Below, one piece after another: positions 46,057-49,232 of a stretch of 49,232 nucleotides of DNA. The notes beneath the pieces are model-generated. The model was not told the origin of the DNA, ran no database searches, and saw only the letters and a list, made by a program, of their open reading frames with translations. The position numbers and the translations under genes were made by a program. This DNA comes from Candidatus Flemingiibacterium sp. (GTDB lineage: Bacteria > Bacillota > Clostridia > Oscillospirales > CAG-272). The stretch is taken from positions 1-49,232 of the forward strand of contig JAZQXA010000061.1 of NCBI GenBank assembly GCA_045632605.1. Direction: 5' to 3'. Each line of letters opens with the position of its first letter. Position 1 is the stretch's first letter.

Positions 46057-46318
46057 AGAAACAAAGCATTACTGCACGGCAAAACTTCCTGCTTGGTGCG
46101 TGATGATACGAGTATATAAACCCACAAAGAAATAAATGGAGTCCGGGCTTCACCTGATGGGAATGCAGACCTCCCGACCGTTCCTGATCTGTGAGATGTT
46201 TACATCTCTGCACGAACGACTCGGATGTTGGGAGCACAAAACAGGTGAGAGGACACCAGCCTTGCATGAGCAGGGTTTTCTTATCTCGTATCCACACGGC
46301 TCGGCGGGTTTTTGTTTA
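46057..46318 (+). ncRNA. ssrS: 6S RNA (extended rod)
   Basis: Nested pairings GATACGAG/CTCGTATC, AAACCC/GGGTTT, A-rich central bubble, GGAGTCC/GGACACC, TCACCTG/CAGGTGA, CTCCCGAC/GTTGGGAG, CGTTC/GAACG, GAGATG/CATCTC; ends approximate. Confidence 0.75.
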
Positions 46319-46343: not shown

Positions 46344-47765
46344 ATGAAGCTCAAAAATACTGCAAAAAAGAATGATATAACAGAGATTACAATTACTGAT
46401 ATAAACAACCTCGGATGCGGAGTTGGCAGAGTAAACGGCGTTGTCACCTTTGTTTCCGGTGCTTGCACGGGTGATGAGCTTGTCATTCGTCTTATCAAGG
46501 TGACATCCGATTACAATGTCGGTAAAATTGAGAAGATAATAAAGTCCTCGCCATATCGTGTTGATCCGGGATGCACGGCGGCAAAACGCTGCGGCGGATG
46601 TGTTTACCGCTATATTACATACGATCATGAGCTTGAATTAAAGCGAAACCGAGTGATTACCGCAATGAAAAAAGCAGGATTATCGCTTGATGTTGGTGAC
46701 GTGCTTCACACGGGTATACTCGACGGCTACCGCAACAAGGCACAGTATCCGATTGGTACGGTTAAGCTTGGAAAAGTGAAGAACACTACAGCACGCACGG
46801 CTATTGGTTTTTACGCTGAAAAGTCGCATGAAATAATCCCCTGTGTTTCGGAGGACGGTTCGTGCAGATTACAACCTGAAATATTCGGCGAGATTGCAGA
46901 TTTTGTCCGTGTTTGGATGGATGAAAATAAACTATCAGCATACGATGAGCTGAACGGACACGGCATTATGCGGCATCTCTATCTTCGCCGTTCTGAATCG
47001 ACGGGCGAGGTTATGATTTGCTTTGTGGCTACAAAAAATGATTCGAAAATTTCCGCGCTTGCAAGGGCCGTTTTCGATAAATTCCAAAATGCGGCAAGCG
47101 TTTGGATAAATATAAATTCGAGAAACACGAATGTTGTGCTCGGTAACGAATGGCATCTTGTTTACGGCAAGGAAAGGCTCACTGACAAACTTTGCGGACG
47201 TACTTTTGAAATATCACCGCAGTCATTCTGGCAGGTCAACCGAAAAGCGGCAGAAATGCTTTATAATAAGGCGGCAGAGCTTGCAGAGATAAAATGCGGT
47301 GATCGAGTGCTTGACTTGTTCTGCGGAATAGGTTCGGTCGGTATGTCGGTGACGTCGCCTGATGCAAAGCTTTACGGAATCGAAATTGTTCCCGAGGCGG
47401 TTGAAAACGCAAAGAGAAATGCCGAAATAAACGGTTTTACAAAAGCGGAATTTGTTTGTGCTGATGCGGCTGACCCGAATGATTTCAACAAGCACCTTGA
47501 AAGAATTGCTGCGGACGGGCTTGATGTGGTGATACTAGACCCACCGCGAAAAGGTTGCTCGCCGGAGCTGCTTGCGAAATTGTCCGAGCTTGCGCCGAAG
47601 AGGATTGTTTACATCTCATGCAATCCCGACACGCTTGCGAGAGATATTGCGCTTCTCGGCGGAAGTTACCAATGTGATGAGGTTACGCCCGTTGATATGT
47701 TCCCACGCACAGGGCATGTGGAGTGCTGTGTGCTACTATGTCGCACAAGCGCTCCATCGATATAA
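46344..47765 (+). CDS. rlmD: 23S rRNA (uracil-5)-methyltransferase RlmD/RumA
   Basis: TRAM domain, C...RCGGC, YRNKA, SFWQVN, DLFCGIG, LDPPRKG, YISCNP, VDMFPRTGHVE; ATG 46344 after GGAGG. Confidence 0.96.
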   Translation: MKLKNTAKKNDITEITITDINNLGCGVGRVNGVVTFVSGACTGDELVIRLIKVTSDYNVGKIEKIIKSSPYRVDPGCTAAKRCGGCVYRYITYDHELELKRNRVITAMKKAGLSLDVGDVLHTGILDGYRNKAQYPIGTVKLGKVKNTTARTAIGFYAEKSHEIIPCVSEDGSCRLQPEIFGEIADFVRVWMDENKLSAYDELNGHGIMRHLYLRRSESTGEVMICFVATKNDSKISALARAVFDKFQNAASVWININSRNTNVVLGNEWHLVYGKERLTDKLCGRTFEISPQSFWQVNRKAAEMLYNKAAELAEIKCGDRVLDLFCGIGSVGMSVTSPDAKLYGIEIVPEAVENAKRNAEINGFTKAEFVCADAADPNDFNKHLERIAADGLDVVILDPPRKGCSPELLAKLSELAPKRIVYISCNPDTLARDIALLGGSYQCDEVTPVDMFPRTGHVECCVLLCRTSAPSI

Positions 47766-47952
47766 ATCTCTCGCGATATTTTTCGATATATTCCGTCGGA
47801 ACTCGATATACCTGGCGACTCGATATGTTGCCTTATGGCAACGAGATTTACCGTGTCCACAGCCGGGGTATATCATATCGAAACAGAGCATAGCGAGGTT
47901 ATATCGAATTATGCGAAGCAGAATATATCGAACACGCAAAGCATTGTATCGC
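47757..47952. repeat. CGATAT / ATATCG convergent short-repeat array with hairpin spacers
   Basis: CGATAT at 47758, 47774, 47784, 47804, 47821; ATATCG at 47875, 47901, 47925 and GTATCG at 47946. Confidence 0.85.
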
Positions 47953-47960
47953 AAGAATAG

Positions 47961-48066
47961 AATAAAATTGATGAAGTTACATATAAAAGTTCGATTAACA
48001 AATGCGGAACAATTAAGAAGAAAACTTATTGCATTGGTAACTGCCGCCAAAAGCAGAAAGGAATAA
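47961..48066 (+). pseudogene. 3' remnant of a four-helix-bundle (23S rRNA IVP-like) protein gene
   Basis: NKIDEVTYKSSINKCGTI, one extra base near 48015, then RRKLIALVTAAKSRKE-stop; resembles the CGxIRRMLIxSxxTAK tail of this family; no 5' part. Confidence 0.6.
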
Positions 48067-48070
48067 TGTT

Positions 48071-48643
48071 ATGAAAAGAGATAAAAGCGACATTATTTCA
48101 AATATTATTGAAATGCTTATAGATAATAACAAAAGTTCGGCGAAATCAATGATTATTAACGAATATCCTCATAAAGTTTGTAGTGTTGAAAAACGTACAT
48201 ATACTGTATCTGAAAAAATGGAACAATTTATAAAAGATGGCTTTATCGATAGATATACAGGTGAAAAACTTCTGAATCCAGGAATACTCAAAGTGTTATC
48301 AACATATTTTCCTGATGATTTTCCCTTTCACCCCCATTGGAAAATGACGGAAACGCATATAGCATATTGGGAACTAATCCCAACACTTGACCATGTATAT
48401 CCTATCGCCAAAGGTGGACAAGATGATAAAGATAATTGGGTCACAACTTCTATGAAAAATAACTCAATTAAAAGCAATTATACAATGGATGAAATTCGTT
48501 GGAATTTATATCCTCAAGGAGATATAAAAGACTGGGACGGTTTATCAAAATCTTTTATAAATTTGATTGATGCTAATCAGGAACTATTAAAAGATAATTA
48601 CATAAAGACCTGGTACACCGTTACAAAAAAGTTGCTACATTGA
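48071..48643 (+). CDS. HNH endonuclease family protein
   Basis: FIKDGFIDRYTG...TLDHVYPIAKGGQDDKDNWVTTSMKNNSIKSN; visibly AT-richer than flanking genes. Confidence 0.85.
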   Translation: MKRDKSDIISNIIEMLIDNNKSSAKSMIINEYPHKVCSVEKRTYTVSEKMEQFIKDGFIDRYTGEKLLNPGILKVLSTYFPDDFPFHPHWKMTETHIAYWELIPTLDHVYPIAKGGQDDKDNWVTTSMKNNSIKSNYTMDEIRWNLYPQGDIKDWDGLSKSFINLIDANQELLKDNYIKTWYTVTKKLLH

Positions 48644-48658
48644 TACTGTCACAGACAC

Positions 48659-48706
48659 CGCACAACCCATTGCGAATGCGTGACAAGTCTTACTAAAAAT
48701 AACTAA
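48659..48706 (+). pseudogene. Displaced ancestral 3' end of rlmD (attR-like)
   Basis: CGC ACA ACC CAT TGC GAA TGC GTG ACA AGT CTT ACT AAA AAT AAC TAA = RTTHCECVTSLTKNN-stop, aligning with RTGHVECCVLLCR. Confidence 0.7.
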
Positions 48707-48726
48707 CTATAGCGAGGTAAACAAAA

Positions 48727-49232
48727 ATGATAACACTTCTCACACCCAAAAACGGTGCGGTACTCGACACATTTACAGATTTTCAGAATCGCTACTGCGA
48801 GATCGTCAAGTCAGAGGGAACCGAGGCTGCAAATGAGTGGCTTGCAGGTATTAAGCTTGATATTGAACGCTCGCATCCGAATGTATTTTCATTTGAATGG
48901 GATGCTGATACCGATGAACCGTACACTTTTGAACTGGCGGAAAATGAGAATTTTTCGGATTCCCAAAAAATTCTTACGAACGAGCCAAAATGTGAAGTAA
49001 CTAATCTCAAAAACGGTGTTATATATTATTGGCGTGTTAACGGTTGTGAGCCATTTACTTTTGAAACTATACCGCATTTTACACGTTTTATACATATTGA
49101 TGATGTTAAAAATGTCCGCGATATCGGCGGTGTCAACATCAAGCAGGGACTTGTTTTTCGCGGAAGCGAGATGAATTGCCGATATACTATCACGGATGAG
49201 GGCAAAAGAACTTTTCACGATCAGCTTAAAAT
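48727..49232 (+). CDS. Tyrosine-protein phosphatase family protein with N-terminal FN3-like domain (partial, runs off window)
   Basis: Open frame from ATG 48727 after GAGGT: ...VTNLKNGVIYYWRV...RFIHIDDVKNVRDIGG...KQGLVFRGSEMN. Confidence 0.8.
   Translation, partial: MITLLTPKNGAVLDTFTDFQNRYCEIVKSEGTEAANEWLAGIKLDIERSHPNVFSFEWDADTDEPYTFELAENENFSDSQKILTNEPKCEVTNLKNGVIYYWRVNGCEPFTFETIPHFTRFIHIDDVKNVRDIGGVNIKQGLVFRGSEMNCRYTITDEGKRTFHDQLK

Follow-up and report, generated by a model that had tools for sequence, protein, structure and literature searches.

The sequence analysed here, hereafter the window, is a stretch of 49,232 nucleotides (positions 1 to 49,232 of contig JAZQXA010000061.1, assembly GCA_045632605.1, Candidatus Flemingiibacterium sp.), near the right end of which the gene rlmD, encoding a 23S rRNA methyltransferase, is interrupted by an insert of 953 bp. 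We consider it probable, at roughly 0.7, that this insert is a recombinase-less cassette, inserted site-specifically in the last codons of rlmD, and that it is one of a family of mini-cassettes flanked by attachment (att) sites. The insertion took place between the His and Glu codons of the catalytic FPxTxH/xE motif (the slash marks a junction here and below). The left arm of the cassette encodes a replacement tail, VECCVLLC..., keeping the general-base Glu and the last strand of RlmD, and the original rlmD tail is left unread behind the right arm. The units of this family carry one or few genes each and have in common the crossover point and a conserved right arm of ~27 nt, with unrelated cargo. 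The sequences compared here show the insertion with its limits, the empty site, the lack of a recombinase, the common arms and the horizontal spread of the module, whereas the moving enzyme and the activity of the chimeric RlmD are inferred. The cassette would be moved in trans by a large serine recombinase from an element that targets rlmD, with possible tandem accretion, as in cis-mobilizable elements (CIMEs) and pseudo-SCC elements (SCC, staphylococcal cassette chromosome).

The rlmD open reading frame (ORF) occupies positions 46344..47765 of the forward strand. Its product is an RlmD/RlmCD-type 23S rRNA 5-methyluridine (m5U) methyltransferase with the Pfam domains tRNA_U5-meth_tr and TRAM, and its best solved relative is the RlmCD of S. 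pneumoniae (E 5e-86). The protein ends with ...DMFPRTGHVECCVLLCRTSAPSI, that is, ...FPRTGH/VECCVLLCRTSAPSI; the host part of the gene (46344..47717, +) ends with the His codon of FPRTGH. The hexamer CGCACA occurs at 47706-47711 and, 953 bp further on, at 48659-48664. After this second copy, the frame continues with ACC CAT TGC GAA TGC GTG ACA AGT CTT ACT AAA AAT AAC TAA, which encodes T H C E C V T S L T K N N and has its stop codon at 48704-48706. The stranded original rlmD tail, H CECVTSLTKNN, lies at 48668..48706 (+), and a host gene of the tyrosine phosphatase family (48727..49230, +, running off the window) starts 20 nt after its stop. The rlmD end, the recurrence of CGCACA after 953 bp, the in-frame stranded tail and the 20-nt gap had been pointed out in an initial annotation of this DNA, along with a third CGCACA at 47742, and all of these are present in the sequence.

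The RlmD protein was used to search 41 genomes, including the source genome (G000), and the C-terminus and downstream flank were read in the 27 rlmD loci where the tail was readable. Of the relatives searched, G003 is the closest (RlmD 82% identical), and it has an empty site: its rlmD ends with FPRTGHCECVTCLTKK and a stop codon, followed by 17 nt and an orthologue of the phosphatase gene. The two downstream proteins are 70% identical over 168 aa, and the full-length G003 protein matches Pfam Y_phosphatase3 at 2.8e-21. On the left, collinearity of the window with G003 stops after ...CGCACAGGGCAT (...GGGCAT, 47717); on the right, it resumes at CATTGCGAATGCGTGAC (CAT TGC GAA TGC GTG AC, 48668) and extends through the spacer into the phosphatase gene. 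The stranded tail is collinear with the G003 tail HCECVTCLTKK and with the spacer beyond it. If the host halves were rejoined, the restored empty site would read ...GGGCAT/TGCGAATGC... The initial annotation had predicted an HCECV-type tail directly before the phosphatase gene in a relative with the empty site, and this arrangement exists in G003; the exact wording of the prediction needs one correction, as the residue before His is G and not T.

The target-side core reads CGCACA GGG CAT (47706..47717, +), with GGG as in the relatives; Gly is the commonest residue before the His, TGH being present in 19 of the 27 relatives' tails. The right-hand triplet ACC before CAT is without counterpart among the relatives. 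Since GGG is host-like on the left and ACC is foreign on the right, the crossover must be placed at the His codon CAT (47715-47717) or immediately behind it, outside CGCACA, in which the core had at first been sought. The insert spans 47718-48670 or, equivalently, 47715-48667, with the two His codons at 47715-47717 and 48668-48670.

The left arm (P', 47718..47765, +) encodes the substitute RlmD tail VECCVLLCRTSAPSI with its stop codon. It is not collinear with G003 and carries a Glu matching E424 of RumA. At the end of the alignment with E. coli RumA, query residue 467 stands opposite chain residue 431, and Glu460 of H-V-E falls on RumA E424, assuming that the alignment end is ungapped. E424 was assigned the role of the general base by means of the E424Q mutant (PMC1904294). 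The crossover thus falls between His and the catalytic Glu, and RlmD would be inactivated by any insert that did not bring an x-E-x-x-V-L-L tail with it. The kept motif and the good alignment of the new tail to RlmCD suggest that the chimeric RlmD is functional. Cassettes in rlmD have to supply a functioning end of the enzyme, with the general-base Glu, and they represent a clean natural case of an element repairing the gene that it interrupts. The first 30 nt of the left arm are identical in a cassette of the same genus (G006), and 25 of 26 positions are identical to the tails in G550 and G744.

Seven inserts have the same crossover point, and in each of them a right arm of the type ACTGYNRCAGACNYY-N7-10-CAY, with a CAGAC core, directly precedes a His-led copy of an rlmD tail. 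In the window, the right arm (P) is the 27-nt sequence TACTGTCACAGACACCGCACAACCCAT (48644..48670, +), and a related arm is located directly before the stranded tail in the six other cassettes. The window cassette (953 bp) carries an array of hairpins similar to the RNA motif Gut-1, a decayed four-helix-bundle gene and an HNH gene. Two other cassettes are from the same genus: that of G006 (1.13 kb, G+C 0.32) encodes an acyltransferase-3, read as two ORFs, and that of G012 (0.75 kb, G+C 0.35) encodes a protein of a glycine-transporter family. The G550 cassette (2.05 kb) contains genes for an adenine methyltransferase and a type II restriction enzyme, and its two copies of the tail make up a repeat of 31-34 bp that has a single mismatch. 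The L085 cassette has an array, a four-helix-bundle gene and an HNH gene, the L086 cassette has an HNH gene within a tandem structure, and the L110 cassette, on a metagenome contig, encodes an uncharacterised protein of 335 aa. A relative lacking the HNH gene in which rlmD still had the same replacement ending and no stranded tail had been named beforehand as the case that would speak against an insertion. The rlmD of G006 does end with GHVECCVLLCRTQQ, yet it is followed by a different 1.13-kb cassette and by its own stranded HCEGV tail.

The acyltransferase-3 cargo of G006 (L003, 736-1416 and the neighbouring frame, contig C74) consists of overlapping ORFs of 227 and 119 aa, which can be explained either by a frameshift or by an assembly error. 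The stacked structure of L086 (2860-5000, a metagenome-assembled genome (MAG) of a Clostridia bacterium) has three tails. Here rlmD is followed by a tail, an array of the Gut-1 type, a four-helix-bundle gene and an HNH gene of the classic kind; then by a second tail attached to a short copy of the 3' end of rlmD, a window-type HNH gene and the right arm; and finally by a third tail, a shortened array and a four-helix-bundle remnant of 25 codons.

In the genus, the tail is readable at 18 rlmD loci, and three of these have such a cassette in the 0.3-1.5 kb available downstream. At one further locus there is an in-frame scar, and at three or four the tail carries a long extension of the kind that is typical of larger elements. 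The scar (L004; G024, contig C131) comprises ~30 codons inside the rlmD tail, GHCEAVCLLSKLNTERYIENDMTSSLDNDTQ/VEAVGLLKKVTI followed by a stop codon, and looks like the residue of a larger, almost wholly deleted element, because its start resembles the extension of G013, G015 and G019. In L007/L108 (G013, contig C47), L014 and L015, rlmD is extended by ~90 codons (...KATYQEIKDYVLEHSGLKVSSLYIAQVKQKCG...HFGMI and a stop codon) at the same crossover point, with no Pfam match. This extension is presumably the left end of a large element, the other end of which lies beyond the contig.

The two arms of the cassette were also compared with each other. When the right arm of the window is joined to the left arm (P/P', ...CAGACACCGCACAACCCAT/GTGGAGTGC...), dyad symmetry can be noted at 11 of 18 positions, a level reached by 10 of 500 shuffles. 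Five cassettes were tested, and in four of them the joined arms are more symmetric than shuffled ones (at 10-12 of 18 positions, a level attained by 10, 4, 3 and 18 of 500 shuffles); no dyad symmetry above shuffles was detected in the left attachment site (attL). This is the pattern expected if the arms are the halves of one recombination site.

The module of the window cassette was found in the same order in other hosts. The G701 genome (another genus of the same family) has rlmD, the tail, the array, an intact four-helix-bundle gene and the HNH gene, the RlmD being 46% and the HNH protein 77% identical to those of the window. In L085, from a MAG titled Lachnospiraceae, the order of the module is the same, with RlmD 41% and HNH 82% identical; the module is followed by the arm ACTGTCGCAGACACCACACCCCAT (GATACTGTCGCAGACACCACACCCCAT) and then by the stranded tail HIETVVLMSSK with its stop codon. 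The cargo is far more alike than the host gene, and the host flanks differ, which points to a horizontal spread of the module to the same site.

These identities bear on the possibility that there was no insertion at all, the arrangement of the window being ancestral, a local duplication of the tail or a misassembly of the MAG, and G003 being the derived state. The G000 assembly is indeed a draft of 159 contigs with a completeness of 88%, and the empty site comes from one relative, G003 being the only one with the same downstream gene (1 of 29 other loci). Such an explanation must be set against the break in composition at the insert, where G+C is 0.28-0.36 across 47900-48600 versus 0.44-0.53 in rlmD, and against HNH proteins that are 77-82% identical where RlmD is 41-46% identical. 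The tails differ (VECCVLLC versus CECVTSLT), and therefore they are not products of a simple duplication; a precise loss in G003 would itself require site-specific excision. In another public sequencing run, a contig of 206 nt crosses the right junction (48603-48808) with four differences, although its low depth makes it weak support. Many loose contig ends at 47716-47723 and 47799-47910 in public runs stem from rlmD tails and arrays of other organisms. The absence of any insertion is hardly credible in our estimation.

The intact gene of the window cassette encodes an HNH-family nuclease of 190 aa (48071..48643, +; G+C ~0.30). It is the sole ORF of at least 100 codons lying wholly within 47718-48670; the longer overlapping frames are those of rlmD and antisense or out-of-frame ones. 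The protein gives 20.2 bits with the HNH_4 family of Pfam and 19.2 bits with HNH, both just below the cut-off. The catalytic motif DH...N...N (D107-H108, N122, N131) is invariant among 13 homologues with 51-82% identity, all 13 of which are intact, and in the ESM Atlas the protein falls in small 'HNH endonuclease' clusters. An AlphaFold model of the HNH protein based on 13 sequences was poor, with a mean predicted local distance difference test (pLDDT) value of 59.5 and values below 50 in the core residues 93-150. No match for the HNH or the four-helix-bundle protein was found by PADLOC. The defence-like character ascribed to the cargo by the initial annotation was not confirmed for the HNH gene, given this result and the sub-threshold Pfam matches; a sister cassette does carry a type II restriction–modification (R-M) system.

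Rather than being a spacer, the 350 nt that separate the HNH gene from the tail contain the Gut-1-like hairpin array and the four-helix-bundle remnant. The remnant (47961..48066, +) is a frameshifted C-terminal part, ~34 codons long, of a gene for a four-helix-bundle protein of the 23S rRNA intervening sequence (IVS) type, detected in two frames by tblastn with the intact G701 protein. The intact G701 homologue matches TIGR02436 (84 bits) and PF05635 (23S rRNA IVS protein, 73.8 bits); the window remnant, with ~34 C-terminal codons in two frames, fails a full-length family match. A functional in-frame mini-ORF derived from the remnant was ruled out, as the intact protein is matched in two different frames. 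A scan of 47500-48900 for promoters and terminators gave three promoter-like sites versus 5.1 expected and no terminator, and was uninformative.

The intact state of the HNH gene, conserved in 13 of 13 homologues, can also be read in favour of homing. A free-standing HNH endonuclease would cut the rlmD FPxTxHxE site, the insert would be copied in by repair, and the substitute tail would make the allele uncuttable. The HNH gene lies at the extreme right of the insert, by the junction, in the window, G701, L085, L086 and L087. Seven of the 13 homologues are located just downstream of rlmD or a paralogue, and one more lies behind an rlmD-type tail. Homing sites usually lie in highly conserved motifs, as the catalytic motif of rlmD is. 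However, right arms of the same type and the same crossover also bound the HNH-free cassettes of G550 (R-M), G006, G012 and L110, homing needs homology on both flanks while the downstream flanks differ between hosts, and 5 of the 13 homologues are located elsewhere. The catalytic motif of an HNH homing endonuclease is present, yet it is not the endonuclease that defines the insert: since like ends bound HNH-free cassettes, homing is unlikely to play this part, and as the origin of the insert we consider it very improbable. It could add to the persistence of the insert.

No recombinase gene was detected in 47718-48670 by the ORF scan and Pfam, the only Pfam match being HNH. The insert is thus integrase-less, as annotated earlier. 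The earlier statement that the 3' end of rlmD/rumA is a target of integrative elements in Bacillota also agrees with the literature: single serine integrases target rumA, whose 3' end is exchanged reciprocally with that of the integrase gene (PMC4701971), and prophages have been described next to rlmD (PMC12785378).

In three loci of other genomes, a large serine recombinase is associated with arms of this kind. At L089, the ORF of a large serine recombinase (Recombinase and Zn_ribbon_recom domains) runs in frame into ...MT/VECAVLLSRTKK, and the HNH gene comes directly after it. The genomes of G007 (same genus) and G756 (another genus) have the left arm GTGGAGTGTTGCCTGCTACTCTGTCG, closely similar to that of the window. 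In G007, the left arm is followed by an ORF of 135 codons and a convergent gene of a large serine recombinase; in G756, this left arm and the ORF recur, and of the G007-type recombinase only the last ~97 codons, 98% identical, are left behind them. Searching the family with the G007 recombinase yielded a single close relative, namely the G756 remnant, along with 19 distant ones, of which not one is adjacent to rlmD. The source genome has two large serine recombinases, one on a 2-kb contig and the other at a contig end, one small resolvase-like protein and a single Phage_integrase match (contig C159); no arm-like sequence was found at the two large serine recombinases. The tandem structures of L086 and L089 fit accretion with a recombinase-encoding element. 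From these loci we infer that the cassette was most likely moved by a large serine recombinase acting in trans, which is the best-supported candidate.

The G756 remnant brings in a further explanation, according to which the 953 bp are a decayed stump, i.e., what is left of an integrative and conjugative element (ICE) or prophage with a large serine recombinase after internal deletion. Such a stump would be a CIME in the strict sense, immobile, with its ends merely left over. Decay at the rlmD site can indeed be seen: G756 keeps only the last ~97 recombinase codons behind the same left arm, G024 has the in-frame scar of another element (~30 codons) in its rlmD tail, and the four-helix-bundle gene of the window is itself a frameshifted remnant. 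CIMEs, moreover, are defined as deletion derivatives (PMC7563491). However, in the six cassettes read at this point, the right arm starts ~0-35 nt from the stop of the cargo, with no recombinase remnant, and independent deletions would not all end there unless the arm were kept by selection. The cargo consists mostly of single intact genes with low G+C and unrelated functions. We regard decay as a rather unlikely origin of the insert.

Several observations weigh against the interpretation of the insert as a member of a family of site-specific mobile cassettes. The G012 cassette, one of the five tested, shows no dyad symmetry of the joined arms. The strict arm pattern is rare: in the 401 genomes of the family, two of the ten matches were true, and a reversed control pattern gave seven matches; in IMG/VR, none of the four matches was true, and among metagenome contigs, one of four was. 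In the flanks seen, the five HNH homologues mentioned above are not near rlmD, and neither an arm nor a stranded tail could be recognised at the rlmD-adjacent HNH loci L087, L091 and L092. The initial annotation had suggested a search for alternative cargos and cognate recombinases; unrelated cargos were found in related cassettes, but none of the recombinases could be tied to the CAGACACC right arm, since the contigs of G007, G756 and G013 stop short of the right ends of their recombinase-bearing elements. Both large serine recombinases of G000, a genome that is 88% complete, are unlike the L089 and G007 enzymes (23-24% identity). The direction of events was deduced from contrasts in composition and identity rather than from a rooted tree. 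Contigs from four gut or bovine metagenome runs gave no joints that would indicate an excised circle or an empty site; these runs cover small shares of the stretch (0.05-0.19 of sampled words), the uncovered parts being uninformative.

The array between the replacement tail and the four-helix-bundle remnant is a bipartite hairpin structure of ~200 nt (47755..47955, +), related to the Gut-1 RNA motif and composed of (T/G)CGATAT heptamers and mini-hairpins. Its left half (47755-47850, +) contains four TCGATAT heptamers with a small hairpin after each, and its right half (47869-47955, +) contains ATATCGA heptamers, also with a hairpin after each; the centre between the halves reads GAGATTTA...TATATCATATCG. 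A DNA search with 47718-48070 gave matches in 58 of 401 genomes of the family (400 and G000), G000 included, and the array statistics refer to the 19 best loci of this search. A stem of at least 4 bp is formed by 32 of 52 spacers in the left half versus 17% of shuffles and by 42 of 52 spacers in the right half versus 31% of shuffles, and each half has 47 distinct spacers out of 52. The left heptamers are preceded mostly by T or G, with few exceptions, and this base goes together with A or C after the right heptamers in 18 of 18 loci in which both halves were detected; this switch between T/A and G/C could reflect shared descent, since only two states exist. RNAalifold applied to 14 array copies indicated three long-range 8-bp helices between left and right heptamers as well as the hairpins, with compensatory changes in 13 of the 41 pairs.

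Good copies of the array match the Rfam Gut-1 model (RF01706) on both halves, on opposite strands, with 32.4-35.7 bits at a gathering score of 50. The window copy has no Gut-1 match at E<=10, and Rfam yields only chance-level matches to microRNAs and small nucleolar RNAs (snoRNAs) on the insert. By score, the array is outside Gut-1 (RF01706 threshold, 50 bits). In L056, a true Gut-1 match (55.6 bits) is the left half of a bipartite array with GTGATAT and ATATCAC heptamers, and the Rfam model seems to cover only half of the natural unit. This locus (L056, 2493-2760; G772, contig C15) has a tRNA gene and a terminator, followed by the true Gut-1 match. Gut-1 was listed in 2010 by Weinberg et al. 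as a likely non-coding RNA from human-gut sequences only, with no function given in the accessible part of that account (PMC2864571). The window array resembles it in having a purine-rich heptamer and a small variable hairpin in three or four repeats, but differs in its heptamer, (T/G)CGATAT instead of GUGAAAU, and in its inverted second half. The link to the four-helix-bundle gene and rlmD is absent from the same part of the 2010 account.

Five of the 19 array loci lie directly after an rlmD tail, four by tblastn and one by a tail visible at the contig start. The 14 others are elsewhere, and in about a quarter of them a four-helix-bundle gene follows the array. No other array copies were found in G000 by DNA search, and the pattern TCGATAT-N8-16-TCGATAT occurs in this genome only in the insert and in three unrelated pairs. 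In the first hairpin of the right half (e.g., 47883-47899 in the window, and in L056-L072), a symmetric GA/GA internal loop is kept (AACC-GA-GC-AAA-GC-GA-GGTT) while the stems vary, and a reading by eye indicated that the loops of the array hairpins are often of the UUCG, UACG or GNRA type. The GA/GA loop and the loop types hint at a role of RNA rather than DNA, on the strand in the sense of rlmD. In L039 (200-1275; G026, contig C54, another family of the order), the rlmD tail AHVESVVCLTRRLDVDMRR, with its stop codon, runs into three units of CTCGATAT plus a hairpin; no right half was found in this array, and the next ORF (319 aa) has no Pfam match. The bipartite structure of Gut-1-type arrays, their frequent position before a four-helix-bundle gene and their transport on rlmD cassettes appear to be new. 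Gut-1, unexplained since 2010, would be half of a larger bipartite array that often precedes a four-helix-bundle gene and travels on rlmD cassettes.

Directly upstream of rlmD, a 6S (SsrS) RNA gene is located at 46083-46314 (+), matching Rfam RF00013 with 45.0 bits (E 4.6e-8; gathering score 46.4). The DNA of this stretch is 74-89% identical in 17 other loci.

A broader interpretation, which we put forward as tentative, is that gut Clostridia possess an integron-like cassette system docking at the catalytic-tail sequence of rlmD. Its units would be captured and stacked by a serine recombinase encoded elsewhere and would carry R-M systems, HNH nucleases, membrane proteins and the Gut-1-type array with its four-helix-bundle (Avd-like) partner. 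If this is true, it would provide the first genomic, and possibly functional, context for Gut-1, as a ribonucleoprotein on mobile cassettes. The arm sequences can be used to find further cassettes and the recombinase, and could serve as a compact docking system in gut Firmicutes.

Among known systems, the ICEs and prophages with serine integrases at rumA/rlmD, such as the streptococcal Tn1549/Tn5252-type elements, CTn5 of C. difficile and phiEr670 of Erysipelothrix, have the same target and replace the 3' end of the gene and the C-terminus of the protein (PMC4701971, PMC12785378). The window insert likewise has its crossover in the 3' end of rlmD with an exchange of the C-terminus, and the recombinase ORF of L089, running into an rlmD-type tail, resembles the right attachment site (attR) described for rumA ICEs. 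However, these elements have sizes of tens of kb and carry their own integrase along with transfer or phage genes, whereas the window insert has 953 bp and neither. The streptococcal rumA exchange shifts the reading frame, whereas the window insert keeps the frame and the H-x-E motif. The well-known rumA/rlmD integration site also collects very small recombinase-less cassettes.

A likeness also exists with the streptococcal CIMEs and microCIMEs, which are flanked by att sites and lack recombination and transfer genes (PMC7563491). The window insert is bounded by att-like sequences, as indicated by the imperfect repeat CGCACA-NNN-CAT, the empty site of G003, the arm in seven cassettes and the symmetry of P and P', and the ORF list and Pfam revealed no genes for an integrase, relaxase, coupling protein or VirB4 in it. 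As to an origin by deletion, a decayed recombinase-bearing relative exists in G756, yet no recombinase remnant was found in the cassettes read. The CIMEs described in that source occupy sites of tyrosine integrases (tRNA-Lys, rpsI, rpmG, fda, rplL) and are regarded as deletion products of 1.2-13 kb, whereas the rlmD cassettes occupy the rlmD tail, have mostly one gene and combine a short conserved right arm with unrelated cargo.

The staphylococcal pseudo-SCC elements and SCC composite islands, which lack ccr, are bounded by repeats, occupy the 3' end of an rRNA methyltransferase gene (rlmH/orfX), occur in tandem and carry R-M and other cargo (PMC3900703, PMC13739063), can be compared with the rlmD cassettes by analogy only. 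They differ in the target gene rlmH, the Ccr recombinases, the hosts and their size of tens of kb.

Integron cassettes are small, mostly one-gene and promoter-poor units with a conserved recombination site at the 3' end, which insert at one fixed site and can be stacked. Unlike them, the rlmD cassette has no attC-like palindrome or conserved hairpin in its 27-nt right arm and no intI beside the site, and it inserts within a coding sequence and supplies a tail. Identification of the insert as an integron gene cassette was ruled out, given the lack of attC and of an integrase near rlmD.

Neither rlmD-tail cassettes nor bipartite Gut-1 arrays on them were found described in open-access text. In kind, the window insert is already known, being an att-flanked, recombinase-less integrated element of the CIME or pseudo-SCC type. 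What appears to be new is a target-specific family of cassettes with one or few genes, a conserved short arm and a self-supplied catalytic tail.

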